Source: Vezdaea acicularis (taxonomy: Eukaryota). Taken from it: a stretch of DNA of 47,673 nucleotides. The stretch lies in NCBI GenBank assembly GCA_026025075.1, contig JAPEUI010000057.1, positions 62,001 through 109,673 of the forward strand. Direction: 5' to 3'. Below are positions 23,946-47,673 of the stretch, piece after piece. The position numbers and the translations under genes were made by a program. A model generated the notes under the pieces. It was not told the DNA's origin, did no database searches, and saw only the letters and a program-made list of their open reading frames with translations. Numbering within the stretch: position 1 is the first letter of the stretch; each line of letters begins with the position of its first letter.

Positions 23946-24259
23946 ATCCTGCTATCGTCTCCGCTCCTGTTTCCGTCAACCTCATCCTGTGACGCAAAGA
24001 TTGTGATTGATATATACACAACCAACTATTGATGATTGCAGCAGCTTTGTATTTCTCTTCCTAGACTGGTCATAGCCCACGGCGAATGTGGCAGAACTTC
24101 CCTAAATTCATTTAGAACATCCAGTCAATTCATCAACTCACATCCGACGTCATCTTCGCCTGAGCTTATCAATCACACACAGTACGGAAACGCTAAGGAC
24201 CTCAACCTTTCTATTTAACATCAAAAGGCAACTCCGAGAAGAGCGCTGTATTCGCAATC

Positions 24260-26613
24260 ATGTCCGTTCGTGGCGATACATATAGATCGTCAGCTGGTGA
24301 GCTAGATATTTCCTTCCGCGAGGGTCCGCCAGGCAGCGGCCGGCGCGGCGAGCGATGGGATACAGAGCGCTTCGCTAGAGAACGCGAGCGGGTTGAGGCT
24401 GGCCCACGAAGGTTCGGTAACGGTCGGGAATACGAAGAGGACATCGAGATTGACCACTTCGAACGTGATGATGGACCTCGCCCACGCCGTCATGGCAGTG
24501 TGAGCCAGAGAGTCTTTGAAGGTGACTTCAGTCGCCAAGGCGGACGTGAACGCGGCCGTGTCTACTACGAGGACGATCGTTCGAGCAGTGGCAGCATTTC
24601 CCCTCCCCGCTCAGTTGTGTCGAGTGCGCTCCGTGGTCCTCGAGGTGGGCGTCGTCAGTCGATTACCATAGATAGAGATATCCGCGGACCACCTCCCGTG
24701 CCTCGAGGGCCAGCGCGCCCGAGTTACTTGCGACGCCAATCATCTCTTGACACATTTGATCGCAGGCCTCGTCCCCGGTTTGAGGAACACGAAGAAATAT
24801 CCATCCGTGATAATTTTCGGGCTCCCCCAGTTCGTGAACATAGACCTCCTCCTGCTGGGGAAGAGATACGGATCCGTGAAGAATTCAGAGGTGGCGGTCG
24901 CGAAGACATAAGCATCAGAGAAGACATTCGAGACTCGGGCAGGGACGATATTAGAATTCGTAACGACTTCAGAGGCCCTGGTAGAGAAGATATCAGAATA
25001 CGCGATGACTTCAGGGGTCCCGTTAGGGAGGACATCAGGATTCGCGATGATTTCAGAGGTCCCGGAGTGGAGGAGATCAAAATTCGAGATGATTTTCGAG
25101 GCCCTGGCAGGGAAGAGGTTAGGTTCCGAGATGATTTCCGGACCCCAGTAAGGGAGGACATCAGTATTCGAGACGACTACCGAGGCTCTGGGAGAGAAGA
25201 AATAAGCATTCGTGATGACTTCAGAGGCCCTGGGAGAGAGGAGATCAGTATTCGTGATGACTTTAGAGGCCCAGTAAGAGAAGAGATCAAAATCCGAGAA
25301 GATTTCAGACCTCCGCCTAGAGAAGATTTCAGACCTCCCCCTCGTGAACGCGAAGAGATCCATATACGAGAAGACCGGTTTCGAGACGACTTCAGACCTC
25401 CTATCAATGTTCCCATTCCCCTTCCTCGCCCAAGGAGATCCCCACCCCGATTTAAGGAGCGAGAATATGAAGAAATACGAATTGCAGAGCCTGATCGCTA
25501 TGGCGATGAAGGTTTCAGGGATTTCAGGAGACAACGAAGCGGAAGTCGAGTTGATATCCGAGAATCTAGCGAGAGCATGACAGTTGATGAACGAGAAGGT
25601 GGAAGAAAATTCCCTCGCCGTGGGAAAACAAAGATGCCCCGCAGGCTAATCGACCCCCGAGCTGTGATCCAGTTGGGTTATCCATACGAAGATGACGTAT
25701 GAGACCCATCCGCGGCCAGTTTGATACATAAGCTAACTTTCGAGCTCTAGGGTGATCATATCGTCATCCTTCTAGCATTAGGTGGAGATCAGATTGATGA
25801 AGTCATAAGCATTAGCGATAGAATGCGCAGAGATGAAGGAGGTGAGTCGCTATCAAGACTTTGGCATATGTTCATTAACACTCGTGTGTAGGCGCAGGGA
25901 TCAGGATTGAGAATACATCAAGAATGATCGAAGCACCTGCCCCGCCCCCATTCCAGCCCGAATTTGTTGAAAACAGGACGGAAATATTTGAGTCCAGTCC
26001 CCCACAACCACAAGTGATACAAATTCCTGCCCCTGCAAGTCAGATCATTTATAGTGCACCTCCGCCGCCTGCAAGAGCTGAGATACTCCCTGCGCACCAT
26101 CATGGACCACCGGCTTCTGAAGCCTGGGAGGTTGCTACCGTACGATCGGAAAGGCGCGAGTCCGAGCATGAGTCCGAGCGGCATAGTTCGCGAACAAGGT
26201 CTCGATCTCGTCGTCGAAAGTCGTCTCCCAAAAGAGAGATTATTGAAGAGTCCAGCGAAACAATTGGAGGGCCTCTGAGCTTGTTCAATCCTGATCGGCG
26301 CAAGAGTAAGAGTGAGCGTGATATCAAAGCTGAGATCAAAGCCCTTGAAGCAGAAAAGAAGGCACTGAAGCTAGAGCGAAGGGCAGAAAAGGAAGAACGG
26401 CAGGCGGAAAGGTACCGAGATAAAAGCAGGAATAGGGATAACTTTGAAGTGGTCGAAACAGATCAGGTTGAGATCAAAAGAGATCGTAAGGGTAGGTTAT
26501 CATTGGTTAAAGGTTGATAAAGGTCGGCCCTGATTTATTATGGGGTAGACCGAGAACACGAACGAACTCCCGATCCGAGATTGCTCCGATTGGCTTTGGG
26601 TACCCTTACATGA
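24260..26613 (+). CDS. Disordered Arg/Glu/Asp-rich protein with 14-aa tandem repeats and a small globular motif (PRRGKTKMPRRL..AVIQLGYPYE..ALG..IDEVI)
   Basis: Exons 24260-25696, 25751-25841, 25892-26491 and 26549-26613 join in frame across canonical introns. Retaining the last intron gives an alternative stop at 26517. Confidence 0.85.
24860..25322 (+). repeat. Coding tandem repeat, 42-nt unit x ~11, consensus E(D/E)IxIRDDFRGP(G/V)R
   Basis: Eleven consecutive 14-aa units read from the translation. Synonymous positions vary between units. Confidence 0.95.
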
Positions 26614-32377: not shown

Positions 32378-34095
32378 CTAAGCATTTTGTCTTTCCATGG
32401 CCTGCGTAAGCGCTTGGACTACTTTTTCGTTCTTTTTGATGGTTGCAGCATTTAATGGCGTCCAGCCAGTGCTCTCAGTCAGCCACGGGTCTGCTCCATG
32501 CTCTAATAGTAAACGTGTGACCTCTAAGTGACCGTTCGTGGCCGCTGCATGTAATGGTGTAAACTGGCTCAAGTCCCTCACATTTGGGTCTGCAAGGCCT
32601 TCTTCAATGAGGACTCGGACTACTTCTTCATGTCCACACATACATGCTAAACAGAGCGGCGTGATTCCTCCTTCCGCTACTGCATGCACATTCACACCAT
32701 GCATCAGGAGTACAGACGCAATTTTAGGCTGGTTCGCTACTGCAGCTATATGCAGTGCATTTCGTCCGCCTGATCCATTCTCAATCATATTGACGTCTTC
32801 AGTGACACAAAGAACATGCTTGAGCGCATCTATACTTGGTGATGCTGCAGCGATAAGTAGAGGTGGAAGCGGCTGGGTATCTCTCGGAGACGGAGAGGTT
32901 CCCGTGGACTTCTTATAGTCTGTTGTGGTCAGTTTGTAGTCGCTACGCTACCTGTGTAGCATATTTTTTTACTAACCTGTGCTTTGCTGTGTCGTTAGTT
33001 CATTTCTTGGTTGATGTAACTCTTGGATCAGAGAATACATCTTCTCTTCATGCAACTTGAAAATTGTGAGAATTTCCTGGTGGCGAACACGTGCATCTAA
33101 GGAATATGTTCGTCAATGTTGAGAATCTCAGATACGGGCGAAAGTCATAACCTTGAGAATTGAATACTTCACCAATGTCCTTGCATGCAGCGTCTCGACG
33201 CCTAATGTCCGACAGAACCACCGACGGATCGTCCAAGTTGGGTATCGACCTTAGAAATCTAACTGTACTCAATAATATTAGTTGTAGAAGCACAACAAGA
33301 AGGGTTATTGTAATTCATGGTGTTTTTTTGATAATAGCATGCCGCTGTAATCTGATATTTGATTATATATTTATATAGTGCAACCAGACGAGCTTCAAAT
33401 TCTTGCTTCAGTGTTGTATCTTCACGCGTGACATATAAGAACTCAATTTCAGTGTACCGCGAAACGATGGTGGATACTTCCTCGGCTCCGGCCACCATGG
33501 CTGCATACTGGTCGGAGTCGTTGGTAGAGAGCTACAAGTATTTCAGCTGGCTGTCTTTCAATATCAAGGAACATCCTATTACCTGCATGATCAGACAAAC
33601 GCCTGCCCACGGTATTGCTGCGTGGGTCGGATCGAGACCAGCTGCAACACTAGCAAGGTCTTTAAAAATCTTGACGGCTTTCAAAAGCTTCTCTAATTGA
33701 TCACGGACGACAATTTCTTTTCCCGCAAGCCCAATCCTCCATTGCTTCCTCAACATAGAGTCGTGCGAGCGTTCAGTCGCCCGAATCAGTTGGCTGACTA
33801 CGTCGCCATCTGTTTGTGCCACTGCTTTCTGCACAGCTACGATTGTGCCTTCAAAAGCATGCTCTTCACTTTTTAGTTCTTCTGCTGCGAGCGACCAATA
33901 ATCTTTCTTTGATAATTTGTCGTACTCCGCGCCAGTCGAGACAGCGCTTCGGCTCGTAGCTGCGTCGTCGTTGATACAGATCTGATTCGAAGGAGTGAAA
34001 GACGATTGGATTTGCAGAGAGCTAGAAGGTTCCGGAGAGTCTTGAGCCGGGGAATTAGCATTACCTCGACCTTTTCAAACGAAAATCCGCTTCAT
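32378..34095 (-). pseudogene. Fungal NLR-type N-terminal helical domain (NWD NACHT-N-like) fused directly to ankyrin repeats; probable pseudogene
   Basis: DYWSLAAEEL..KIFKDLASVAAGLDPTHAAIPWAGVCLIMQ..YQI resembles NACHT N-terminal domains. C-terminal ankyrin repeats (NALHIAA, TPLCLAC, TPLHAAA, TPLNAA). Exons 34095-33583, 33531-33315, 33262-33152, 33096-32977 and 32919-32378. In-frame TGA at codon 7 (34077-34075); intron 2 donor at 33314 reads AT instead of GT. Confidence 0.75.
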
Positions 34096-34360
34096 TGCTG
34101 TATATTTATTTGAATAGGTGACGTATATATTATACTGACCTATTGGTGTGAGGAGGCAGCGTACGAGCAGGGAGCAGACTACGATCAATCAGGGATAGCG
34201 CCGGTGTGACGCAGGAGCAACGCAGGAGATAGATAGTAAAGTAGTAATAGTATAGTAGTCAACAGTAAGTCTTATATACGATTAAGTACTAAGGATCAAA
34301 TCTCCAGCGCTTCCCCGCTTCTAGATATGATAACGGTCACGTGACGCTGGCCTAGCACTG

Positions 34361-35545
34361 GGGTCTCGCAGCGGTCACGGGAGGGCAGGTTCATGACCAC
34401 CCTTGGCATACGGTCTCGCTAAGCGAGCGCCTTCACCTGAAGGCGGATGGTGGGCCTTCCACCGCCTATTCGAAAAGCCACGGGGCCTTCGGCCACCGGT
34501 GGCATTTGAGGAGCCTGCGCTTCAAGCGCCCAAACCGCTCCGTCGCTCTCGCCCGGCAGGGCTTGTGAGCGCTTCAAGCGCTCACAAGCGTATCGTGCCG
34601 GCCGGTCGCCCACGCATCAGGCGCTACCACAAGCGCTTGAAGCGCTCAGAGTGCATTTCGTCGGGCCTCTCGTCCAGCCTGCCGAGCGCTGCCACGAGCG
34701 CTTCAAGCGCTCCGAGCGCATTATGCCGGTCGGTCACCTCACGCATCAAGCGCTACAACGAGCGCTTCAAGCGCTCCGAGCGCTCTGTGCTGGCCGCTCG
34801 CCCCTCGCATCAAGCGCTGCCACGAGCGCTTCAAATGCTCTAAGCGCTCTGTGCCGTTCGGTCGCCCCTCGCATCAAGCGCTACCACGAGCGCTTGAAGC
34901 GCTCAGAGTGCATTTCGTCGGGCCTCTCGTCCAGCCGGCCGAGCGAAGCCATGAGCGCTTCAAGCGCTCCGAGCGTATTGTGCCGGTCGTGGTCTTGCTG
35001 GCTGACAGGAACCACAAGCGCTTCAAGCGCTTGGGGCGTATCAAGAGCAGCTGTCTTGTCCGGCCCATATGCAAGATCGCAGGCGCTTCAAGCGTTCCAA
35101 GCGCATTGTATCAGCCCATTCTCCAGGAAAAATTCCAAACGCTTCAAGCACTTGAAGCTTATAATGCCGGCCAGTCACCCTACCTGCCAGCTGAGATCAT
35201 GTTCACTCTGAGCACTCCGAGCGCTTCAAGCGCTCCAAGTGCATTTGTGCCAGCCTTTTCTTCCTGCCCGCATGCAAGACCGTGAGCGCTTCAAGCGCTC
35301 AATACGCATCATGCCCAACGGGGACATTTCAAGTGCTTATGGCCTTTTATGCTGACCACCTCGTCCTGCCTGCAGGGCAAGGCCATGAGTGGTTCAAGCG
35401 TTTCAAGTTTACCAAGCCGATCATCTCGTCGTACCAGTCTGACAAAACTGCAAGCGCTTTGAGCGCACGGAGTCCATTCTGCCCCCTGATCTCAACGTGC
35501 GTTCTGCCTGGCAGGTGATGCTATAGAATGCTTCGAGCGCTTCCT
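34361..35545. mobile_element. Element A: left terminus of an unclassified DNA element (hairpin cassette + subterminal repeat array); right end not seen
   Basis: 34361-34529 aligns collinearly with 38606-38777 (GGG..TCGCA...GTCACG.GA, CACCCTTGGCAT.CGGT, TAAGCGAG.GCCTT.AC, AGGCGG, CC.CCTATTCG.AAAG, GCCTGCGCTTCAAGCGC). Homology stops left of the GGG. Confidence 0.7.
34514..35542. repeat. ~64-bp tandem array centred on palindrome GAGCGCT-TCA-AGCGCTC, decaying rightwards
   Basis: Cores at 34567, 34631, 34696, 34760, 34824, 34888, 34953, 35016 and 35081, then degenerate copies near 35137, 35219, 35284, 35387, 35452 and 35526. Confidence 0.92.
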
Positions 35546-36184
35546 ACACGGCAATGCTCAGTGATGAGCCCCTGTCTCATTGGAAATGCTCCAAAAAGTC
35601 TCTTTTGAAGTCTGCCCCTTCCATCCCCTATAATATAGGCAGTAGCTAATCCTTACATCACCATAGGCATATCTTTTTGCTTGTTTAGAATTACCCATAG
35701 TCAATCCAACCAATTCCTCTGCAGGTCCATACGCTGTCAACATTACTTCTAGTGTTCCTGATCGCAAGAAAGAATCAACTTGAGCACTTCATTCATTGAC
35801 GCTCAATACTCGCACGTTTCAATTTGTTTGCAATCCGACACCGGCAAGATAACCATCAATGGTTCCCTTGAAATATTAATGTTTATGATAAAATGCCGAG
35901 CAAGTTACCCAAGATGCTAATTGGCAATGAGAAAGACACTTTGGTTTTACCTTACGACAGCAACGCTCAATAGCTGGGATGACTGGCTGCTGAACACTGA
36001 TCCTATGAAAAGTTGAGGCCAGCGGTTCTATCACAGGTACCTAAACTTACACACCAAGGGTTCAAGGTGTAAAGAGACTTACAACATCCAGTATCGTCAC
36101 CCTGCTCATCCTATCCGACTCAGATCTTTTGCCTTTGAGCTCTTTTAATACCGCCGATGATTGCGCAGTGCCATATGATCTGCT

Positions 36185-37540
36185 ATGTCAGCCAATATCA
36201 GTCCCGAAATAGATATATAAAGATTTAAAGAAGCATAGTTATCAAAGTTTTGCGAGCAGGTTCGAAGATTGAAGGCTCAATTGTTGTTCGATAGATAAGC
36301 TGAATGGGTTTCAAAGCTGTATTACCGTTATAATTGAAGCTTGGAGGCTCATTAGAAAGATGTAGAGGATTGAATCAGATTTCAGACAATCATCTGAAAA
36401 GAAAACTATCTGTAAGCATTCTTGGGCCAGTATATAAGTGACCAGAGAATCTAAGCTCGGCCCACAAGCGCAATGACAGCTTACAACTAAGAGTCTTAGA
36501 TCAAATGTCCCATGCTGATGATACTACGCCAAAGACACCTCAGTAACTGCACTTCATGTATGAGTATGTCACTAAAGCGACCACCACAACCTCACAGAAA
36601 CAGTAGTACCGACGACTCTCATCGTATAACATTTCTAGTAACCTGACGATCAAGGCTAGAAGACCATCTTGGATGCCCAGTCATCAATCTTTGATGCATT
36701 CTCAATGAAAAGCAAAGTACCTTACATCTCTATAAGCTTTGAAGCGAGATGATCTCAATGTTTGTCATGCAAGGCACCAAAGATCGATACAAGAAAACCT
36801 CTTCAGTTACGTTCACCTGACCAATATGGGTAGGTTTCAATTCAGCGTTCATGGAAACCCTAAATATAGCACGGCAAGGTTAGACTCTACCACCGAGCAA
36901 AAGGTTCTGTCTGTTGATGAGGATGATTAGGTTACCAACACTGCCGTAATACCGCCTGTGATTGACCAAGGTGAATGGTCCCATCGGTCGTCGCGTCAAG
37001 GCTTTCAAATCATCGATTGTATGTCTTATTCTCCCCAGTTCAGTCCCTTTTCTTATTCAGCCATTCAGCTTAGCACTATTTCAAAAATCTAAGCAAAAGC
37101 GCTGACGTGTGGGGACAACAGTGTGCAGATAGCTTTCTTAAATCCTCAGGAGTTAAGAACTTGTACGCAACATATCAAGAGCCAATCACTGAAGCTATGC
37201 ATATTTTGAACATTGTGACTGATGTACACGTATTTCTCGAGCTGCGGGCGTCTCCTCGTGTACTTGATTGTGTACAACGCCCATCCAATCTCACAATATT
37301 CCCAAACTCCTGTGACCACATTATTTAAAAGAAGCCGTCCATTGAGACACATGTCTTTTGTGTATCAGTTCTAACAACACCTGACGCCTCCGGAATAATC
37401 GTTGAAGAAAATGAAGCCTTAACCGTAAATCCTTATTTGCAATCTGCTAAGCACCGTTACCACCACATATATGACGTTTCAGTATAAGGACGTTGCCCCG
37501 CAAGAACATCAAGAGGTTCTACGGCACTTTGCTTCCCTTG
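36185..37540 (+). pseudogene. Decayed multi-exon gene of unknown family with many nonsense codons
   Basis: Protein-like reading from ATG 36185 (MSANISPEIDI*RFKEA*LSKFCEQVRRLKAQLLFDR*AEWVSKLYY...). Intron-like segments at 36558-36597, ~36717-36773 and 37019-37121 (GTATGT..GCTGAC..CAG). The last joins VKAFKSSI to CADSFLKSSG in phase. Confidence 0.45.
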
Positions 37541-37585
37541 ACGCAAAGCTCAAACTTTGATTTTAATGCCCAATCGTTCCGCCAC

Positions 37586-38290
37586 TCAAGTCGTTGGCAT
37601 CCCAATTCGCCTCCTCTTTTGGCCCGTCGTGGAACCTGAAAGTGTTAAGAGACAGTTGCTTGCAAACCGATCTTCTTGATGTTCCTCGGTGGCCCAGCGT
37701 TTTCGACCCATCTGGCCAGATAACGTAGCAGGAGCACATTCGTTGACGTCCAGAATGTATTTGACCAAAGTGTTACGTTCGGTAAACGACATGACTGAGA
37801 TTATTGGACGAATAGAGACCATAAGTCCGTCAACAGTGAATTCGGGCGCCGCGATGTTGCCGTTCCAGTCTTTCCGTTCCCAATACTCTGTCCAAGGTTT
37901 CCATATGCGTTTTTCCCTATTAATAAGCCGTCCCTCTTCATTGAAGACCTGCGTCTTTTCAAAAACGCCTTTCTTCTCAAGCCTATTTCCCTCATTACGT
38001 ACGTAGGTACGATACTTCGTGTCCACGTCTAGTGGCACTTTGCCCCTGTAGCCTAGATCCCACATGAGTTCCTCCCAGTTCTTTGCAGGATCTTCCCCTG
38101 CGATACCGCAATCTGTTTTCCGGACTTGATCGTGCCTGGCCATCCATCTTCTGACTATAAGCTGACTCTCCTTACTCAGCTGCTTCTTTCTAACGACTGC
38201 GGGGCCCCCTAGATCGGCGCAGGAGCCATCTTCATCGGATAGAGGTTTTGGTGGCCGTTCGAATGGGGCCCCTTTGGAGTTAACGCGCTG
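37586..38290 (-). pseudogene. Decayed gene of unknown family containing the 185-aa ORF 38143-37586
   Basis: Protein-like segment NWEELMWDLGYRGKVPLDVDTKYRTYVRNEGNRLEKKG..WKPWTEYWERKDW. The frame continues upstream through two in-frame stops to an intron-like GTTTGC..ACTAAC..CAG (~38341-38289). Confidence 0.45.
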
Positions 38291-38758
38291 CAGTACGCGG
38301 AGTTAGTCATTGTCAGAGATCATAAAGGTTCTTTGGCAAACCTTCAGTGACATTCCTTCTTCTGATGACTCGCGTGATGGTGGATAGTCGCACGCATGTG
38401 GTGATTCACGGGGAGAGTCAGTCTCATGCCTGGCCTGATCCTAAGGGGCGATAAGCAAAGATGCACAGGAATCAGAGTCCACACAGAGCCACATGACGTC
38501 TCACCATTGTCATTGATGGTTATAACAAGCGTTATCCCCTTTGTGTCAATCATATACGAGAACAGCAAGGTCGTTATTGCGGGCTCGGTTCATCCGATCC
38601 CAAATGGGAATCGCAAATGTCACGTGATAATATGGCATTTGCGCACCCTTGGCATGCGGTTTTTCGTAAGCGAGTGCCTTTACGAATAGGCGGTCGAAGG
38701 GCTACCATCCACCTATTCGTAAAGGCATGAGCCGTTAGCGAGCTATTAGCTACCGGCT

Positions 38759-39228
38759 GCCTGCGCTTCAAGCGCTCGAAGCCTGGGGCAGCCGGCTTCA
38801 CCCCGGGGTCGCTGGGGCGCTCCCGCAAGCGCTTCAAGCGCTCAAAGCTCTGGGCAGCTGGCTTCGCTCCGGGCTCGCTGGGGCGCTACTTCAAGCGCTT
38901 GAAGCGCTTGAAGCCTGGGGCGGCCAGCTTCGCTTCGGGCTTGCTAGGGCGCTTCCGCAAGAGTTTGAAGCGCTCCAAGCCTGAAGCGCTCCGGCAAGCG
39001 CTTGAAGCGCTTGAAGCGCTCAAATCCTCAGGCAGTTGATTTCGCTCCAGGCTTGCTGGGGGTTCTGCTTTAAGCGTCTAAAGTGCTTAAAGTCCGGAGC
39101 GGCCGGCTCTGCTTTGAGCTCAGTAGAGCTCTATTTTAAGCACTTGAAGCGCTTAAGCCTAGGGCGGCTGGCTTCGCTTTAGACTAGCTGAAGCGTTCTT
39201 ACAAGCATTTTAAGTGCTTTAAATGCCC
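38759..39228 (+). repeat. ~66-bp tandem array (left arm of element B) with 9-bp AAGCGCTT(G/C) sub-repeats
   Basis: Cores at 38761, 38827, 38893, 38959, 38996/39005, 39072, 39138 and 39203, with increasing C>T/G>A decay inward. Confidence 0.92.
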
Positions 39229-39761
39229 AAAATTTAATACATTCATTTTTGTAATATGTTTATTAAATCAAAAATTTAAATCTTTACACAATTGCAGTTT
39301 TGCTTATACTTAATATTTTAATTGCTTCAACTATTCTAAAAATATTAAATTAATTATGATACAACATGTATCAATATGAACTGCATAAAGGTTTAAATAT
39401 TACAAATAAAACAAATGAACACATCTATTAAATCTAATTGATTTATGTTTTAATTATTTTTTAAATATCAAATTGCAAGGAATTTTTCAAAAATGTTAGT
39501 ATTAGTTACTTTCAAATATGAATTGTTTTATTGCTCCAAAAAAATTCTTGATAAAATCGTACCAATGTTTTTCTATTAATTATTTTCATCAATATCTAAC
39601 AAGATTCTAACTATTTTTATCAATTATTTTTACTTTTAATATTAGATTAATTAATCTAGGAATTAATAATATTAAAATACTAAAATATTCTATTCAATAA
39701 TTAAAAGTATTTTTTTAGCAGTGCAAAAAGCTCAAAATAGGCAATTTGAGCGTGAATTGCA

Positions 39762-40029
39762 TTGCGCTTTAAGCGTTTCAAACGCTTGAAGCGCTTATAG
39801 GAGTACTCCAGCGAACTCAATGAGAAGCCGGCTGCCTGGAGCTTGAAGCGCTGAAAGCACTTCAAGCATCTTGAAAGCGCCCCAGCGAGCCCAGGGCACA
39901 GCCGATTGCTTTGGGCTTCAAGCGCTTGCTGCAGCATCTGGGCAAGCCCGGAGCAAAGCCGACCGCCCCAGGCTTCAAGCGCTTCAAGCGCTTGAAGTAG
40001 CGCACTAGCGAGCCCGGAGCAAAGCCAGC
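39762..40029 (-). repeat. Inverted copy of the 66-bp array (right arm of element B)
   Basis: GCTTCAAGCGCTTCAAGCGCTTG-type cores near 39765-39797, 39841-39868, 39915-39928 and 39972-39996, with reverse-complement linkers. Confidence 0.88.
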
Positions 40030-40440
40030 TGTAATGACTGTATTAGCCCCTAGCTTCTATCAAGTCTTTTGGGATGAATAAGGGGTAAGGAGGCTAGCTT
40101 TGCTTCAGCTTCGCTTCTGCTTCGCCTAGCTCTCTAGCACCTAGCATAAGGCCAGGTGGTTCTTAGATCACCTGACATAGACGAGATAGATATTAGAGCT
40201 GCCGCTTCCTTTAAAATAGCTCTTCAGCAATCAACTTATCTATTCATCTGAATAACTAGTAGGAAGGCATCCTCGCTTTGCTTCGTCTGACCTTTCTTCT
40301 ATCTTGCCTTGCCTCGTCTTGCCTTGCTCCAGCTACTATTGCTGCACCTAGTTTTTGTCTGCAAGTTCTTGAGTTTTTGGGAGTTAGCCCACACGCCTAC
40401 AGCCCCTTGCTCCCTGACAAAGCATTGGCCTGTCCTTACA
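40030..40440 (+). mobile_element. Degenerate LTR (probably the 5' LTR of an older retroelement)
   Basis: Starts TGTAA and ends TTACA (perfect 5-bp inverted ends), with a TATA-like TTTAAAA near 40210 and TpA-rich sequence. It begins exactly where element B's right arm is cut. Flanks CCAGC and GTTGA differ, so it is not a clean solo LTR. Confidence 0.65.
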
Positions 40441-40579
40441 GTTGAGTATCAACATTGAAGTCTAAATAGTCTTATCAAAGATAGAAGATGAGAAATTCCA
40501 TGGATCCAAGTGAAAATTCATCCAATACATGCGAAAAGAACATCAATATCAACTGGAGCAGGTCACTAGAGAGATATAT

Positions 40580-40695
40580 TATAAGAACGCGGTGGCATCT
40601 GCTTAAGGCGTGCCGGCGCATCCTAGACGGCTATTCTTGCTTAGTCACTGGCAGCGCTCAAGGGCGCTTAGTCAACACGCTTCTGACATATATAT
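40580..40695 (+). mobile_element. Possible U3 fragment of a second LTR, interrupted at its TATA box by the chromovirus
   Basis: Abrupt composition shift at TATAAG (possibly mutated TGTAAG), two GCTTAGTCA motifs, and an ATATATAT end directly before the next LTR. Confidence 0.4.
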
Positions 40696-41072
40696 TGTTA
40701 TGGGACACGAGGTAGGGGGCGTCTGGGCAGGAGGAAGCATTGCCCGGACATAGGGGCTAAAGGGTAGTGGCATCGCCCGGACATAGGGGCTAAAGGGTAG
40801 TGGCATCTGGACGCAAGGATAAGGAGCGATCATATGGCGTCTACTAATAGGGGCAGCGCTTGTACGTCATGCGACTGCCCTAGGACGGACAGCGCCTGCC
40901 GCAACTAGCAGCGCTGTCTTGTCCAGGCAGCCACAACCGGATATCCTTTGCCCTATATATATAGATGAACCCCCTAGCTAGATGAATGGAACAACTTCTT
41001 CATAAACACCGTTTACTGACAGGCCGCCCCGTGCCCTGACATATCGATGCCAGGACGCCCCGTGTCCTGACA
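40696..41072 (+). repeat. 5' LTR of the chromovirus (377 bp)
   Basis: TGTTATGGGACACG ... CGTGTCCTGACA imperfect inverted ends, TATATATATA box at ~40954-40963, followed by TATTGGTAGC. Confidence 0.85.
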
Positions 41073-41075
41073 TAT

Positions 41076-41088
41076 TGGTAGCAACACC
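41076..41088 (+). promoter_or_regulatory. Primer-binding site (TGGTAGCAACACC)
   Basis: TGG starts 3 nt after the LTR-terminal CA, as expected for pairing with a tRNA CCA end. Cognate tRNA not identified. Confidence 0.6.
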
Positions 41089-41408
41089 GTATCGCTTTGC
41101 ATATAACAAAGCGTTCGGTCAACCCAGACGGCAAAGACGTTTCGTCGTGTCCGTTAAGCATATAAGCCTTGTGGGACGTATAGCCCCTGGGATAGGCATA
41201 TAGGCTTGTTGCGTGGGTATCATACTCACCTCAACACGAAGCATATAAGTTCTGTGGGGACGTTCAGTCCCTGAATGAGCATATAGGCTCCGTGTCCTGA
41301 GCAGCGTTGTGTTTTTCGGGAAACTCTTAGAACAAGAGCTGTCCTAGCCTTATTATACTAGCTAAGCAACTCTATCTGGACAGGTCTAACTCTGCTATCC
41401 TCTTATCG

Positions 41409-43409
41409 ATGTCCTCAGACAGCCGGGCAGCCAGACTAGAAAACAGGAATCGACTGTCCAAAGAAGGCAAAACGGGTCGAAGGGATTTGAATAAGAATAT
41501 ACACGCGTCATCCCTAGATTTCAGCGAACCTTCTCCCGATCCCCTTACCCTAGAGGACGCAACCCGTCCTGACACCTCTCCGACATCGTTACTTCCGAGC
41601 TCACATAATACATCCATTGAGCCGTCACTTATGGCAACCTCCTCTGCAACTATACACACCGGTTCAAGAGATCTGGCTATGCCAGAGGACAGCGTAGTCC
41701 CAACTATAGAAGGAGATCCATCAGCTGTCCGGGCGGCCATAGGACGTAAGGATAAGGGCGGAGATAACTCCCTCACATACGAGAGGGATAGAAACGCCGA
41801 TCGAGACATGCGGGTACGACAGGATGACGGCTTGACCTATACCAAAACACAATGGAAGAAGGATGCTATGTTCCTTCAGATCGCCATTCAGGCTATAGAA
41901 AAGGAGGACGGGTACGAGGACTACTCGGAAGACTGGACAAACAGCGACAAAGTCAGCATCAACGCGTTAGCAAGGACGCTGGACAGCGCCAAGCGGGAGG
42001 AATACCAGGACTTAGCTCTAAAGAAGATGGCCTCGACCTTTAACCCCTTATCAAACCGAAACGCCTTTTGCGCACTGATAAGACAATACCGCAAGGGGCC
42101 ATCCTTAATGACTGACCCTGAGGCGCCTGAGAAGCCAGCCTCCAAAAGAAGAGATCATCAACGCTCGGACAGCAACGACCGATACAATGATCAGTACCAA
42201 CGACCCCCAAGGAGTCCTAGACGATCCCGACAAATCACTCGGGACAGAAGCATGTCGAGGGACCGTAGAGAGTTAGACAAGGCAGAGGAGGCGGCCAGAC
42301 GAATCAGGGAGCGAATGTCCAGGAGACGTTATACTCGCAATGACGATAATCAAAGCGAAAGAAGCCGGTCCTCAGGCCGCGACAGGTCAGACAGACGGCG
42401 ACAGACCCGAGATAGCTCAAGACGATACCGCGACGAAGTTGACGAGGACGATGATGATATGCTGTCTCGACGAAGGACGAAGGTGACCCCATCGGATATC
42501 GGAAAATTCGATCCACAGAAGGGACCCGTGTCCGTCTTCATCAAGCGTATAGAGCAGCTCGTTGAGATCTTCGGAAAAGAGACGGTCCTTATGCAACTTC
42601 CCCTGTGCTTACAAGGAGAAGCGTTGGAATGGCACACTAGCCTGAACCGAGCAGTGTCCCGGCAGATGCAAAGAAGCCTAAGCTCATGGATAGAGCAGCT
42701 AGAGAGACGATTCAAGGTCGACCGTTTTGAAGCCAGGGACACGGCAGACCAGCTCAAATTCCGGTTTGCTAACCAGAACAGCTTAAACCTGCGACAGTAC
42801 GTGACCAAAAAGACTAACCTCCTAGAAGAAGCAGGCATCTTTGATTCCGACGAGGTAGTTGAGCGCGTCTGGAAAGGGCTTGACCCCGTCCTAATGGCAA
42901 CTGTATCTCCCTACGAAGCCGGGAATTCCCTAGATGAATTCACGACACGCCTGTACCGACAAGAAGGCCCAGCAAAGCGTTGGTGGGAGGAGTCTTCATC
43001 AAAGCAAGGGGCTGCGTCAGGCCAAGCCCGAACACGCTCATCCGGGTATAAAGACGGCAAATATCTGACATCTTCATCAAATAGGAGCACAAAACAGGGC
43101 TCCACGGGGGCAATGATTCAGCAGGGTAGGTTCACGGCATCTTTACAAGGTAATTCTGGCCTCAAGCCAGGGATGCGTCCATGTCGCCACTGTGGCGGAC
43201 AACACATGGACAACGTATGTCCTACCAGCAAGAAGGCTCAGCCGGTCAGAGCGTTTTACGTGGACCCGGACGATTTGGAGGAAGAAGAGAGAGAAGTCCA
43301 TCTGGACGAGGAAACGCTGGCTGCCTTTCGAAGGCTGCAGTCTACCCCTATCACCGAGGATGAGGAAAACCAGGAGCCTGCACCGGAAAACGAGTCCTCG
43401 GGTTGCTAG
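41409..43409 (+). CDS. gag: Gag polyprotein
   Basis: 666-aa ORF with capsid-like region (DIGKFDP..LPLCLQGEALEWH..LERRF) and a Zn knuckle CRHCGGQHMDNVC, directly upstream of and overlapping pol. Confidence 0.9.
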   Translation: MSSDSRAARLENRNRLSKEGKTGRRDLNKNIHASSLDFSEPSPDPLTLEDATRPDTSPTSLLPSSHNTSIEPSLMATSSATIHTGSRDLAMPEDSVVPTIEGDPSAVRAAIGRKDKGGDNSLTYERDRNADRDMRVRQDDGLTYTKTQWKKDAMFLQIAIQAIEKEDGYEDYSEDWTNSDKVSINALARTLDSAKREEYQDLALKKMASTFNPLSNRNAFCALIRQYRKGPSLMTDPEAPEKPASKRRDHQRSDSNDRYNDQYQRPPRSPRRSRQITRDRSMSRDRRELDKAEEAARRIRERMSRRRYTRNDDNQSERSRSSGRDRSDRRRQTRDSSRRYRDEVDEDDDDMLSRRRTKVTPSDIGKFDPQKGPVSVFIKRIEQLVEIFGKETVLMQLPLCLQGEALEWHTSLNRAVSRQMQRSLSSWIEQLERRFKVDRFEARDTADQLKFRFANQNSLNLRQYVTKKTNLLEEAGIFDSDEVVERVWKGLDPVLMATVSPYEAGNSLDEFTTRLYRQEGPAKRWWEESSSKQGAASGQARTRSSGYKDGKYLTSSSNRSTKQGSTGAMIQQGRFTASLQGNSGLKPGMRPCRHCGGQHMDNVCPTSKKAQPVRAFYVDPDDLEEEEREVHLDEETLAAFRRLQSTPITEDEENQEPAPENESSGC

Positions 43410-46400
43410 GTGGCTGTAACCCGGGTAAGAATAAGTCCACAACTATCAATAAGCCTTTGTCTTCTACCCATGGAAACATTTTAATCGCAGACACAGACCC
43501 CGCAGAACCCTGTTACGGGACATCCTTTGCCCTCAATAATTCGCTTGCCCAGCCGGACGAAGCCGGTATCTACCATGTCGCCTTGCCAGGAGAATCGTTC
43601 CGGGGATATACGAATGCCCGTGCCACAACTATCACGGAGACAGGGAAGCATGTGGAGTTTTGCGTGGACACCGGCTCCGCGTTATCGCTAATAGATGAGA
43701 GGATGCTGAAGGAGCATTACCCCTCACTGAAGATACGTTTTATTCCTAACCATAGAAAGATTCAAATATCGGGTATTGGCAAAGGCCCCATTACTAATAG
43801 ATATGTCATGTTGCCCTTGTCTATGCCCACGACTAGTAGCAGTCATCTTGACATACTAGGGGAAGTTCACGTTGTAGAAACCCTGACATGCCAAATTCTC
43901 ATAGGAAACAACGTCCTTCGTCCCAATATGATTGAGATCAATTGGGGAAAGGAGGGTGAAGCGGATCATCTCCGCATAGGTAGCACTAGCGTGCCCCTTA
44001 ACGCGAGACAGGAGGACGCCGATCTCAAGCGTATGCCGGTGTTTGCTTCTAAAGAATATCACCTAGCCCCTGGAACTGGACAGACGGTAGACACCATGAC
44101 CAAACACCCTCCTCCCAAGGGGGATAAGGGGTTTTTATTTGAGCCTAAAAACGTGATCGATTTGAGCACGCATTCTTGTCTTTCTAGCCCTAATGCCCTA
44201 TTGCTGTACGCAACTCAGCCATTGCCCGTCAGTAACTTCGGGTTGACCAGACAAAGGATATTGAAAGGGCAGCTCTTAGGCCATATATGCCCCTATACGG
44301 ATAGAAAGGAGTCAGCCGCCACCGTCATGGTCAATATAACTCAAGTCTTGTCCCATCCCCTGAAGGGCGATTCCCAAACAGCCTCTGCCCCCGTATCAGG
44401 AGACGGTGGCCCAACCGCCGAAAATCCTCAAACAGTACCCATCAAGACAGACGACCTGCCATATTTGATACACTATCCTAGCGAAACCAAGACGGAGGCT
44501 GACATTTCAGTCCACTGGGGCGCTGAATACAAAGCGCGTGTTAGTAACCTTATTAACACACACACCCGTCTATTCCGTCCAAACCTAGGCATGTTCAACG
44601 ATGGCGTCACCATGCCAATACCGTTTCGCGACCCCAAAGACATAGGGGGCTTGAAACAGGCCCCCTATGGCCTGTCCCGGAAAGATAAAGACGCAATGGA
44701 CAGTATCCTTGATCCACTGCTTAAGGACGGTCGCATTGTCAAGGTCCCTCTCGGCACTCCTTCTGCCGCAGCCTCACCAGCTTTTGTGGTGTGGAAGGGG
44801 GAGAAACCGCGGGTGGTAGTCGACCTCCGTAAGGTAAACACCAAGTTGTATCCGGACGCATACCCCCTGCCCAAGCAAGATCAGATCTTGGGGGCGCTAG
44901 GCGGATCCATTGTATTCTCGAGCATGGATGTCACGAAAGGCTTCTTCCAGCAACCCATTGACCCTGAAGACCAGTGGAAAACAGCTTTTGTGACCCCACA
45001 TAGGGGACATGAGCAGCTTACGGTGTCAACGATGGGATTGGCAAATTCCCCAGGATTCTTTCAACATCGGATGGAGTCTTTATTCGGAAGATTCCTCTGG
45101 CAGTTTGTTCTGGTATACGTCGACGACATCATCGTCTTTTCGCGCTCCCTGGGGGAACATTTACAGCATCTGAATCAGGTATTAGACCTATTGGAAGCTT
45201 CGGGGGTCACACTTGCCCTGGCCAAGTGCCATTTTGCATATCCCACCTTGGTAGCACTGGGACACCACGTGTCCAGACTGGGGTTAAGCACCGTCCGGGA
45301 AAAGACGGATGCAATCCGACAACTAGCGTATCCTACAGATCTACGACAACTGGAGATAGGTCTGGGTTTCTTTGGCTACTACCGCAAGTTTGTACCGGGC
45401 TACTCGGATATTGCGCAGCCGCTCCTACGCCTCAAGACGGAAGGATTTAAGGGAGGTCCAATGAAAGGCAGAGCCAGGCAAAACTACGCGGACAACCACT
45501 CCCAAGAAAGGGGAACATTCAACTTCGATGGCCCTTGCCAGGCAGCCTGGGACAAGCTGAAAGAGCGGCTATGTAACGCCCCCACGTTAGCCTTTCCAGA
45601 CTTTGCCAAGGGGTTCATTCTATACTGCGATGGCAGTAAGGAAAGGGGGTACGGGGCCGCCTTACATCAAATTGGCCCGGATCAGATCGAGCGCCCTATC
45701 CTCTTTCTGTCCAAGCAGCTTAGCGCCCCGGAACGAAATTATTGGGCGACGGAGCTTGAGGTAGGGGCGTTGGTTTGGGCCCTTAAGAAACTGCAGGCAT
45801 ATGTGGACGGGAACGATCTAACTGTCTACACGGACCACGCCGCCATACAAGGCATTTTCCAGTCGGATGGACAAGGGAAAAGGAGCAACCGGTTGAATAA
45901 TTGGGCTCTTTTCTTATCCAAATATAGGAGCAATATGACTATCATACACCGCGCAGGGAAAGTCCATAAAAACGCGGATGGGCTGTCCAGATTGCAGGCG
46001 TCTACGTTCACTACAAGCGTCCTGCAAATTGACGACCAGTTGCGGAAAGCCATAGTCAGCAACTTGGTTAAGGACAAGCACCTAAAAAGCATATACCAGG
46101 CCATAAAGACACAGGTCAAGGCAACAGAGTCAAGCAAGGACGGTCCAAAGACGACTAAAGAGGCGTTCCGTTACGATAGGGACACCGGGCTGCTATATTT
46201 CATAGACAGCGACCGGCATGAACGCCTCTGTATCCCAGAAAAGGCGCAGCCACTAATCCTTACATGGGCGCATGACAATAGGTCTCATCCGGGCGCCAAC
46301 CGTACCTATGACTTCCTGAGGCAAAACGTCTATATGCCCCGGATGAAAAGAATTGTCGCTCGATATGTCCAAGGATGTCCGTCTTGCTCGGTCAGTAAAC

Positions 46401-47518
46401 CGTCCAGACATCCCCCCTATGGTGACCTGCATCCAATCCAGTCGCCACCAATGCCGTTTGCAGTACAGACCATGGACTTCGTGGGCAGCTTGCCACCATC
46501 GTCTAGAGGTAGTACGGCCATCCTCACGGTCACAGACAAATTTAGCAAGGCTATAAAGCTGGTGCCAGGACGAGACACGTTCACCGTCGTCGAATGGGCA
46601 GAAGCGTACTTTCGCCTTGTCTATAAGGATTGGGGAGCCCCTCAGGTCATAATATCAGACCGAGACGCCAAGTTCACCAGCTACTTCTGGAAGGCGTTGT
46701 TTAAAAGGGCCAGTACGCGTTTGGCCATGACTACGGCTTATCATCCGGCTTCAGACGGCCAATCCGAAAGAACAAATCAAACCGTCGAAATTGCTTTACG
46801 CTGCTTGCTGGCAGGCCTGGAGACAAAGTCGGGCTGGGAAGACATCCTTCCGGACGTAGAGTTTAGCATCAATACATCAGCAAACGTCACCACCGGGTCA
46901 ACACCCTTTGAGTTACTCTATGGTGTTGAAGCACGGACGGCGTTCTCTCCCCCTACGAGTATGAATGCTGGCGCCGACTCTTTTGTCGAGAACAGAGTAC
47001 AGATACGACAGGACGCGGCGGACGCTATGCGGATGGCACAGACTCGAATGAAGGTGTACTTTGACTCGAAGCACGCCCCAGTGACCCTGACCGGATCAGT
47101 GTACTTGCGTCTGGCCACTGGCATAAAGAAGGGATACAGGCTGGCCGGGGCAAGCAAGCTGTCTCCAGTCAAGATGGGTCCTTTCCGGATCAAGAGCAGG
47201 GTTGGAGATCTAGCTTATGAGATCGAGTTGCCACCCGATCTTCAGGATATCCATCCAGTAATATCAGTCGCGCACCTAGAGCAAGCGCCCGACGATTCAT
47301 TGACCGGGGACAGACGACTTCCGCCTCCCGGACCCCTTTTGATTGACGGGCATGAGGAATGGGTCGTCGAGAAGATATTGGGACAGGAACAACGGGGGGG
47401 GAAGAGTTTCTACAAGGTAAAATGGGACGGATACAGCAATCCAACCTGGGAACCGGCAGAGGACATTGCGACAGACGTCCCACGGCTGGTCCGCAGGTTT
47501 GAAAGGACACAGCGTTAG
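43364..47518 (+). CDS. pol: Pol polyprotein (protease, RT, RNase H, integrase, chromodomain), -1 frame relative to gag
   Basis: VDTGSA (PR); YPLP, KTAF and YVDD (RT); YCDGS, TELE and YTDH (RH); H-x4-H..CPSC, MDF, ISDRD and GQSER (IN); EEWVVEKIL..YKVKWDGYSNPTWEP (chromo). The frame opens after TGA 43361-43363 and has no early ATG. Confidence 0.96.
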   Translation, partial: GKPGACTGKRVLGLLGGCNPGKNKSTTINKPLSSTHGNILIADTDPAEPCYGTSFALNNSLAQPDEAGIYHVALPGESFRGYTNARATTITETGKHVEFCVDTGSALSLIDERMLKEHYPSLKIRFIPNHRKIQISGIGKGPITNRYVMLPLSMPTTSSSHLDILGEVHVVETLTCQILIGNNVLRPNMIEINWGKEGEADHLRIGSTSVPLNARQEDADLKRMPVFASKEYHLAPGTGQTVDTMTKHPPPKGDKGFLFEPKNVIDLSTHSCLSSPNALLLYATQPLPVSNFGLTRQRILKGQLLGHICPYTDRKESAATVMVNITQVLSHPLKGDSQTASAPVSGDGGPTAENPQTVPIKTDDLPYLIHYPSETKTEADISVHWGAEYKARVSNLINTHTRLFRPNLGMFNDGVTMPIPFRDPKDIGGLKQAPYGLSRKDKDAMDSILDPLLKDGRIVKVPLGTPSAAASPAFVVWKGEKPRVVVDLRKVNTKLYPDAYPLPKQDQILGALGGSIVFSSMDVTKGFFQQPIDPEDQWKTAFVTPHRGHEQLTVSTMGLANSPGFFQHRMESLFGRFLWQFVLVYVDDIIVFSRSLGEHLQHLNQVLDLLEASGVTLALAKCHFAYPTLVALGHHVSRLGLSTVREKTDAIRQLAYPTDLRQLEIGLGFFGYYRKFVPGYSDIAQPLLRLKTEGFKGGPMKGRARQNYADNHSQERGTFNFDGPCQAAWDKLKERLCNAPTLAFPDFAKGFILYCDGSKERGYGAALHQIGPDQIERPILFLSKQLSAPERNYWATELEVGALVWALKKLQAYVDGNDLTVYTDHAAIQGIFQSDGQGKRSNRLNNWALFLSKYRSNMTIIHRAGKVHKNADGLSRLQASTFTTSVLQIDDQLRKAIVSNLVKDKHLKSIYQAIKTQVKATESSKDGPKTTKEAFRYDRDTGLLYFIDSDRHERLCIPEKAQPLILTWAHDNRSHPGANRTYDFLRQNVYMPRMKRIVARYVQGCPSCSVSKPSRHPPYGDLHPIQSPPMPFAVQTMDFVGSLPPSSRGSTAILTVTDKFSKAIKLVPGRDTFTVVEWAEAYFRLVYKDWGAPQVIISDRDAKFTSYFWKALFKRASTRLAMTTAYHPASDGQSERTNQTVEIALRCLLAGLETKSGWEDILPDVEFSINTSANVTTGSTPFELLYGVEARTAFSPPTSMNAGADSFVENRVQIRQDAADAMRMAQTRMKVYFDSKHAPVTLTGSVYLRLATGIKKGYRLAGASKLSPVKMGPFRIKSRVGDLAYEIELPPDLQDIHPVISVAHLEQAPDDSLTGDRRLPPPGPLLIDGHEEWVVEKILGQEQRGGKSFYKVKWDGYSNPTWEPAEDIATDVPRLVRRFERTQR
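43385..43440 (+). promoter_or_regulatory. -1 programmed ribosomal frameshift signal (G GAA AAC + probable pseudoknot)
   Basis: Heptamer 43385-43391 in the gag frame, 5-nt spacer, stem CUCGGGUUGC/GUAACCCGGG, and loop GUGG complementary to CCAC at 43437-43440. Confidence 0.8.
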
Positions 47519-47673
47519 CTGTGTCTTGTCACATCGCGCAATTAAGGGGGTATTATTTTGATATAGTTACCCCTATATTCAAACTAGCTACCGAAATCGC
47601 TTATTTAGATCGCTAAATCAATTCTAGCTGAGCTGCAACCTCGCCTCACCTCATCTCGCTCTGCTTCACCTCA

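Follow-up and report, generated by a model that had tools for sequence, protein, structure and literature searches.

Here we describe a 47,673-nucleotide stretch of DNA from the fungus Vezdaea acicularis (contig JAPEUI010000057.1, positions 62,001 to 109,673; hereafter the window), which carries two related repeat modules, termed elements A and B. Along the forward strand, an NLR-like gene fragment is followed by A, a three-exon gene on the minus strand, B, and a Gypsy retrotransposon. Each module comprises a terminus of about 150 bp that starts with GGG and, inward of it, an array of palindromic sites recurring every 64 bp (A) or 66 bp (B). In B, the array also recurs in inverted orientation beyond an AT-rich loop. 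On balance, we favour the view that both modules are ends of foldback-type DNA transposons.

The conserved terminus

The terminus of A (34361–34515, plus strand) starts GGGTCT and that of B (38606–38761, plus strand) starts GGGAAT. A first-pass annotation of this DNA had proposed that the two are collinear from GGG onwards, and the alignment bears this out over about 152 bp: positions 34361–34512 of A and 38606–38758 of B align end to end, with identity in 97 of 155 columns. The global alignment score is 31.5, whereas 500 dinucleotide shuffles gave a mean of −27.3 (s.d. 5.4) and a maximum of −11. The blocks kept between the two termini include CACCCTTGGCATRCGGT, TAAGCGAGYGCCTT and CCRCCTATTCGWAAAG; the first of these, a 17-mer, occurs twice in the window, once in each terminus, and nowhere else in it at up to three mismatches. 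Outside the termini, the 152 nt adjoining each of them on the left score −30 in global alignment, and blastn found no shared sequence between A and B over 550 nt of left flank. The left flanks are thus unrelated and the boundary of similarity at GGG is sharp. The junction at B reads CCAAAT immediately followed by GGGAAT, and the flank of A reads CACTG directly before GGG. Searches of the window with nhmmer and blastn matched the terminus at A and B only, both times on the plus strand.

Two hairpins are present in the B terminus (38606–38648 and about 38674–38727), with z-scores of −3.35 and −4.75, and none of 200 shuffles folds as well. By contrast, the homologous segments of A show no advantage over shuffles (z +0.44 and −1.40); folding of the whole termini gives z −2.59 for A and −5.31 for B. 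The hairpin-rich terminus of the first-pass annotation therefore holds for B and fails for A, where it would have to recur to be a conserved family trait. As the B hairpins are not kept in A, it appears to be sequence, not structure, that is under constraint in the termini. A palindrome, GTCACGTGA(C), occurs in the window only at 34336–34345, 25 nt outside A, and at 38619–38627, 14 nt inside B; where this second copy aligns, A carries GTCACGGGA. It was considered as a sign of homology between the A flank and the terminus and rejected, the local alignment being not significant (203 and 215 of 1,000 shuffles reach the score).

Phased palindromic sites

The subterminal arrays extend over 34516–35546 in A and 38762–39224 in B (left array), both on the plus strand, as delimited by Tandem Repeats Finder (TRF), repeat families, core positions and unit alignment. 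TRF reports a period of 64 (and 128) at 34567–34989 in A and of 66 at 38763–38983 in B. A 15-bp palindrome, AGCGCTTSAAGCGCT, has 26 matches in the window at up to two mismatches, all of them within 34516–35299 or 38762–39992; 0.17 matches are expected by chance, and none of 100 shuffles attained 26. Similarly, 43 of the 61 AGCGCT hexamers in the window fall inside the two elements.

The A array contains 16 cores, nine of which are perfect palindromes, with nine consecutive spacings of 63–65 bp; inward of about position 35082, its units degenerate and their spacing becomes irregular. It also includes a 257-bp higher-order duplication of four units (34609–34732 versus 34866–34989, 93%), which points to array turnover by unequal exchange or slippage. 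The B left array has about nine cores and a 37-bp partial unit at 38960–39005. Both arrays are best kept next to the terminus and degenerate inward, and in the inner units of B this decay consists mainly of GC-to-AT transitions (15 of the 19 transitions in the unit at 39073).

The unit consensuses of A and B have in common a 16-nt core, followed at three bases' distance by AGC, and a GCGCT located 6–7 nt before the next core. The linkers, by contrast, show no significant likeness between A and B (84 of 1,000 shuffles score as well). Arrays with the same core but different linkers and periods had been described in the first-pass annotation, together with the idea that they form a phased protein-binding array, and both points are strengthened here. 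A core that is kept among linkers that cannot be aligned indicates constraint on the site and independent homogenization of each array, which is not the pattern left by neutral decay of a local duplication. On sequence grounds, this contrast argues for constraint on a putative protein-binding site. In addition, units with C and units with G at the centre of the core occur together in one array, which makes the site symmetric, a property expected of a dimeric binder.

All three forward frames are open over the A array and 64 is not a multiple of 3, so the A repeats are non-coding. The arrays are GC-rich (58–65%) relative to their flanks (41–48%). Repeat-induced point mutation was considered and set aside: its composite index is negative over the whole region, and TpA/ApT is 0.9–1.0 in the AT-rich loop of B. 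A structured RNA gene or a short interspersed nuclear element (SINE) was also considered and rejected, there being no Rfam family above threshold and no tRNA-derived head: an Rfam search of 34000–40200 at E ≤ 1 returned four sub-threshold matches to miRNA models, all in the B array (20.7–23.2 bits, against gathering thresholds of 49.5–100), and an ARAGORN tRNA scan returned no genes.

The inverted arm of B and its probable interruption

In B, the left array is followed by a central AT-rich loop of 526 bp and 18% GC (39225–39750), beyond which the same array recurs on the minus strand (39751–40031), in agreement with the inverted recurrence noted in the first-pass annotation. An inverted-repeat search pairs 38855–38971 with 39915–40031 (117 nt, 86% complementary) and detects further arm pairs, and the unit alignment and the single-strand fold concur, the latter giving one long stem in which 38855–39220 is paired with 39750–40031. 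The arms are imperfect and contain indels, which excludes a chimeric-read assembly artefact. The loop holds no long open reading frame (ORF) and displays no 66-bp periodicity, even in purine/pyrimidine code; this rules out its being a decayed array.

The right arm extends only to 40031, a point that corresponds to some 249 bp before the terminus would be reached, and long terminal repeat (LTR)-like sequence starts there (40030–41072, plus strand; TGTAATGAC … CCTGACA). This block, delimited by direct sequence reading, is followed by a primer-binding-site-like TGGTAGCA at 41076–41083 and by an intact Gypsy gag-pol at 41331–47518, identified with Pfam. Insertion of the LTR-like sequence is the probable cause of B's absent right terminus. 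The last 155 nt of the window (47519–47673) match nothing in 39900–41500, which leaves the assignment of a 5′ LTR unconfirmed; a 3′ LTR, if it exists, starts to the right of the window. Two cases would account for this: a 3′ LTR located past the window's right edge, or a 5′ block that is part of something else. The 155 nt after the pol stop contain a polypurine-tract-like AAGGGGG, and the LTR-like block holds a 33-bp tandem duplication at 40737–40807.

Surrounding genes

The gene between A and B (37586–38507, minus strand) is composed of three exons, and its spliced translation is 100% identical to a 267-residue hypothetical protein in NCBI from a Vezdaea acicularis metagenome-assembled genome (P0130). 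In this model, the ATG lies at 38507–38505 and is followed by a 64-nt intron, an exon at 38440–38342, a 54-nt intron (branch point ACTAAC, acceptor CAG), and an exon at 38287–37589 that leads to the stop codon. The protein belongs to no Pfam family. Its own family is tiny and fungal, with eight relatives among 1.84 billion representatives, and is marked by the motifs HDQ..K.DCG..GED..KNW and W..WT..W...WDG; one member, of 599 residues, carries the domain twice. Homologues on other contigs are 96%, about 95% and 79% identical, values that are uninformative on copy number within one genome, and the only other family member seen in the V. acicularis metagenome-assembled genome is a 62% paralogue. 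The AlphaFold2 model is poor (pLDDT 57, pTM 0.29), Foldseek gave no match in the PDB at E ≤ 0.001 (best 0.5), a sequence search of the PDB gave one match at E 0.71, and the best Atlas scores were 0.76–0.77.

We considered whether B had truncated this gene, the N-terminal 172 residues of a paralogue (P0003) being absent from the window. The idea was dropped because 38507 is the start of the identical public model and because that N-terminus is missing from the remote homologues P0006 and P0007 as well. The first-pass annotation had regarded A as a larger, gene-carrying member into or beside which B had inserted. Gene carriage by A is now less convincing: the only gene between the modules is on the opposite strand, its start codon is 98 bp from the B terminus, and its product is identical to an annotated protein; the gene may be cargo or else a host gene whose 5′ flank contains B. 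As to insertion of B into A, the evidence neither supports it nor rules it out.

To the left of A, Pfam identifies an NLR-like gene fragment (32378–34074, minus strand), with NACHT_N matches in two frames (33259–33531 and 33532–34074) followed by ankyrin repeats (32378–32947). No NACHT NTPase domain and no in-frame N-terminal methionine were seen in it; it could be either a pseudogene or a gene rich in introns. The A terminus is 287 bp from the NACHT_N ORF. The GC-rich arrays thus adjoin a Gypsy element and an NLR-like fragment, a setting prone to transposable elements. The left 31 kb of the window contain genes of the housekeeping type, namely an NDT80-like gene, a transketolase C-terminal domain and genes for a sterol methyltransferase, phosphoglucose isomerase, ribosomal protein S21 and a RING protein. 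V. acicularis is placed in Vezdaeales, leotiomyceta incertae sedis, and the best named relatives of the phosphoglucose isomerase exon are from lichen-forming Teloschistaceae (88–89% identity). In the same part of the window, a 42-bp tandem repeat (126 bp at higher order, about 8.5 copies; 24953–25342) lies in a 501-residue ORF without a Pfam match (24197–25702), which probably encodes a repeat-containing protein.

A proposed foldback-type transposon family

We consider it somewhat probable that A and B represent left ends from two subfamilies that have diverged within a single cut-and-paste, foldback-type transposon family with terminal inverted repeats (TIRs), most likely Mutator-like, B being a non-autonomous copy interrupted by a retrotransposon. 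The sharp boundary of homology, the contrast between core and linker, the inward decay of the arrays and the inverted arm are features of the DNA itself; from them we infer mobility, a transposase, a binding function and a superfamily. Assignment to the Mutator-like elements (MULEs) is a lead by analogy, drawn from the long structured ends, the subterminal repeats and a six-base G-start in common with Muta1, a MULE of the mosquito Aedes aegypti. Judged apart from Repbase and Dfam, the family is probably new, although the kind of element, the foldback type, is known.

In such a family, each end would consist of two parts: a terminus of about 150 bp with the cleavage and recognition sequence, and a phased subterminal array whose sites are 15-bp palindromes. 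By analogy with the 12-bp repeats of Muta1, a dimeric or oligomeric transposase may be loaded at these sites in several copies, which would make end pairing, cleavage and excision more efficient. B would be a non-autonomous foldback element in which the terminus, the array and an AT-rich loop are followed by the inverted array, with LTR-retrotransposon sequence breaking the right arm at 40030–40032; A would be a left end whose array is longer and whose partner lies outside the window or has been lost. Of the traits of foldback elements, long inverted arms of tandem subrepeats are seen in B, and no inverted arm is seen for A in the window. Inverted copies of both extreme termini are not found in the window, and the missing end may lie beyond it. 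In the available text of PMC5225508, the long TIRs of MULEs are those exceeding 100 bp, and they often contain subterminal repeats that are short and tandem; here, a terminus of about 150 bp plus an array is present at one end of each element, and inverted pairing extends only to the array of B.

Several observations weigh against this reading. No reverse-complement terminus (that of B would end …TGCGATTCCC) occurs in the 47.7-kb window, so neither A nor B has paired ends there, or a target-site duplication (TSD), which in MULEs measures 8–10 bp; the 10-nt left flanks, searched as 10-mers for such a duplication, recur in the window only at chance level. Pfam scanning of 71 ORF translations across the window, which treated ORFs of at least 45 residues in 35551–37586 separately, identified no MULE, SWIM, hAT, CACTA or other DDE transposase except the Gypsy pol/integrase, in keeping with the first-pass annotation, which had seen no recognisable transposase either; non-autonomous copies would be without one. 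A protein-database search with the ORF that runs across the A terminus and first units gave no matches among 259 candidates, a weak negative in that it needs such ORFs to have been predicted elsewhere. The fit of a G-initiated terminus to MULEs, put forward in the first-pass annotation, has gained one lead: GGGTCT of A equals the first six bases of the terminal motif of Muta1, GGGTCTACCC, in the available text of PMC5499845; however, this amounts to 6 nt, and in A only, as B starts GGGAAT. The units (64–66 bp) and arrays (0.5–1 kb) are several times longer than those of Muta1. Finally, A and B lie 4.2 kb apart in the same orientation, with each terminus turned towards the 5′ side of a gene or ORF on the minus strand, as a promoter-proximal module might; this placement is compatible with insertion into promoter regions and leaves room for a regulatory-module reading as well.

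Further copies were sought with two patterns in bacterial and archaeal contigs only. The terminus pattern gave no matches there. The phased-core pattern gave one locus, positions 1–260 of a contig end (L001) in a Syntrophomonadaceae metagenome-assembled genome, where a 63-bp tandem repeat in about three copies contains the same 15-bp palindrome, preceded by 8 nt (CGCTACCA) that match some A units. As a relative of A and B this locus was rejected and is probably a coincidence, since its linkers are not significantly like theirs (32–349 of 500 shuffles reach the score). A literature text search for the 15-mer palindrome gave no match, and among the matches listed for Vezdaea the titles and abstract openings concern taxonomy, phylogeny, checklists and reviews, none of them transposons.

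Alternative explanations

It seems unlikely that the modules are not mobile, that is, that they derive from a locally duplicated and long-diverged minisatellite-like module upstream of genes, serving as a binding array for a host factor, with the inversion in B a local rearrangement. The common orientation and the distances of the termini from the B-proximal ATG and the NACHT_N ORF (98 and 287 bp) would suit such a module, but the two downstream genes are unrelated, and DNA transposons usually insert near gene 5′ ends; indeed, most yeast reinsertions of Muta1 and Os3378 lie in or near genes, according to the available text of PMC5225508. A core conserved in the manner of a transcription-factor site would also be expected of a host-factor array; however, a 1-kb array of 16 sites, a conserved non-repeat block of 150 bp whose boundary is very sharp and a second array, inverted about an AT-rich loop, correspond to no known promoter architecture, and a single neutral local duplication would not yield termini that are 63% identical next to linkers that cannot be aligned. 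The lack of matches outside the window, in the bacterial and archaeal contigs and in the ORF-based protein search, is consistent with immobility.

Mobility through an enzyme other than a DDE transposase is, in our view, improbable. In such a scheme, an HUH rolling-circle enzyme or a tyrosine recombinase (Helitron- or Helentron-, Crypton- or Starship-like) would act on a structured terminus, with the arrays as iterons or origin. A single kind of end, seen twice in the same orientation, would be accounted for, and palindromic iterons beside the two strong hairpins of the B terminus recall rolling-circle origins; yet these hairpins are not conserved, and the inverted array of B is what would be expected of a TIR element. 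No HUH/Rep, helicase or tyrosine-recombinase domain was found in the 71 ORFs. Helitrons have 5′-TC and 3′-CTRR ends, a 3′ hairpin and a Rep/helicase, and were rejected: on neither strand does the visible end, which reads GGG… on the plus strand and …ACCC or …TCCC on the minus strand, agree with either sequence. Starships were rejected as well, the A terminus being followed by the 1-kb array and then by about 2 kb without an ORF of more than 84 residues. Tangerine, the one lichen Starship so far described, from Xanthoria, also has NLR-type genes nearby; it differs in having 4–5-bp direct repeats, 10–12-bp TIRs and a tyrosine-recombinase captain that comes first at the 5′ end, whereas no captain is found in this window, and the term ‘tandem repeat’ has no occurrences in the available text (bioRxiv 10.1101/2025.11.25.690456).

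Similarly improbable, to our mind, is that A and B represent an undescribed DNA-transposon lineage of lichen-forming fungi, possibly a new superfamily whose enzyme would read a terminus of about 150 bp together with a 15-bp palindrome every six helical turns, or that the copies have been co-opted as promoter-proximal arrays, as the position of both, less than 300 bp from a gene's 5′ side, would allow. In either case, the binding protein would fall outside the transposase families that Pfam recognises in the window.

Very doubtful is a composite element in which A and B would be two tandem left TIRs around a gene or gene fragment captured in the manner of Pack-MULEs: the common orientation 4.2 kb apart, the existence of plant MULEs with tandem TIRs, some of them amplified (PMC3310237, available text), and the homologues of the intervening gene on other contigs at 96% and 79% identity would fit, but termini only 63% identical with unrelated linkers indicate different subfamilies and not a recent TIR duplication, B has its own inverted arm and appears self-contained, the annotated three-exon model of the intervening gene is complete, and the gene's homologues (including that at about 95%) carry no information on copies within one genome, the V. 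acicularis assembly showing otherwise only the 62% paralogue.

Relation to known transposons

The foldback-type family that we favour would, if paired ends and copies were found, add a fungal example to these elements, and its two subfamilies, with the same 15-bp palindrome and phasing of about six helical turns but diverged linkers, would constitute a natural experiment on the recruitment of transposase oligomers. If the modules proved to be single-copy, they would be reduced to two odd minisatellites of little interest. Transposons of lichen-forming fungi are poorly catalogued. Moreover, misassembly and hairpin-RNA production are both frequent at arrays and long inverted repeats of this sort, whose masking and annotation in the genome are advised.

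Among known DNA transposons, CACTA/En-Spm and Ac/Ds elements carry, within the few hundred base pairs of their subterminal regions, multiple short motifs to which transposase binds. The arrays of A and B resemble them in having multiple short subterminal motifs and differ in being built of phased 64–66-bp units. CACTA termini read 5′-CACTA or CACTG; CACTA/En-Spm was rejected, as the similarity between A and B begins at GGG and the flank and terminus of B are without either sequence. Drosophila FB and Arabidopsis FARE elements are closer in that they have long modular inverted arms of tandem subrepeats around a loop and occur mostly as non-coding copies. The arms of FB consist of 10–31-bp repeats that reach the very ends, whereas here a conserved non-repeat terminus precedes the array, and the arms of B are 86% complementary, the outermost 249 bp of the right-hand one lying out of view. 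Plant MULEs with tandem TIRs also have two TIR-like ends in tandem orientation, possibly with genic DNA between them; in their amplified families both TIRs are conserved in sequence (PMC3310237, available text), unlike the termini and linkers of A and B.

The closest parallel is with Muta1. According to the available text of PMC5499845, its 145-bp TIR is composed of the palindromic motif of 10 bp at its terminus and nine 12-bp subterminal repeats separated by 3–4-bp linkers; adding repeats increases transposase binding and the formation of complexes, a repeat is required for cleavage in vitro, and excision in yeast rises with repeat number. The DDE transposase of Muta1 is known, and its TSD is 8–9 bp (PMC5499845 and PMC5225508, available text). 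In the same text of PMC5225508, 10 of 12 long-TIR MULE families of Aedes aegypti have subterminal tandem repeats, and non-autonomous derivatives keep their TIRs around heterogeneous interiors. Differences from Muta1 are that the present elements have a unique terminus of about 150 bp, 64–66-bp units with a 15-bp palindromic core, arrays of 0.5–1 kb and a fungal host, and that no transposase is seen. Binding, cleavage and excision by an oligomeric transposase acting through the repeats were tested for Muta1 alone and would be common to both only under our proposal. The likenesses lie in the G start, in a terminal motif followed by many phased subterminal repeats with linkers, in differences concentrated in these linkers, and in non-autonomous derivatives that hold ends around unrelated interiors, with repeat numbers that vary at the two ends on the Muta1 side. 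Liu and Wessler refer to Muta1-type elements as ‘type 2 foldback’ (PMC5499845 and PMC5225508, available text), and the architecture seen here, a unique terminus, an inwardly decaying array of short, binding-site-like repeats and, in B, an inverted second array around a loop, matches that of a type 2 foldback element.

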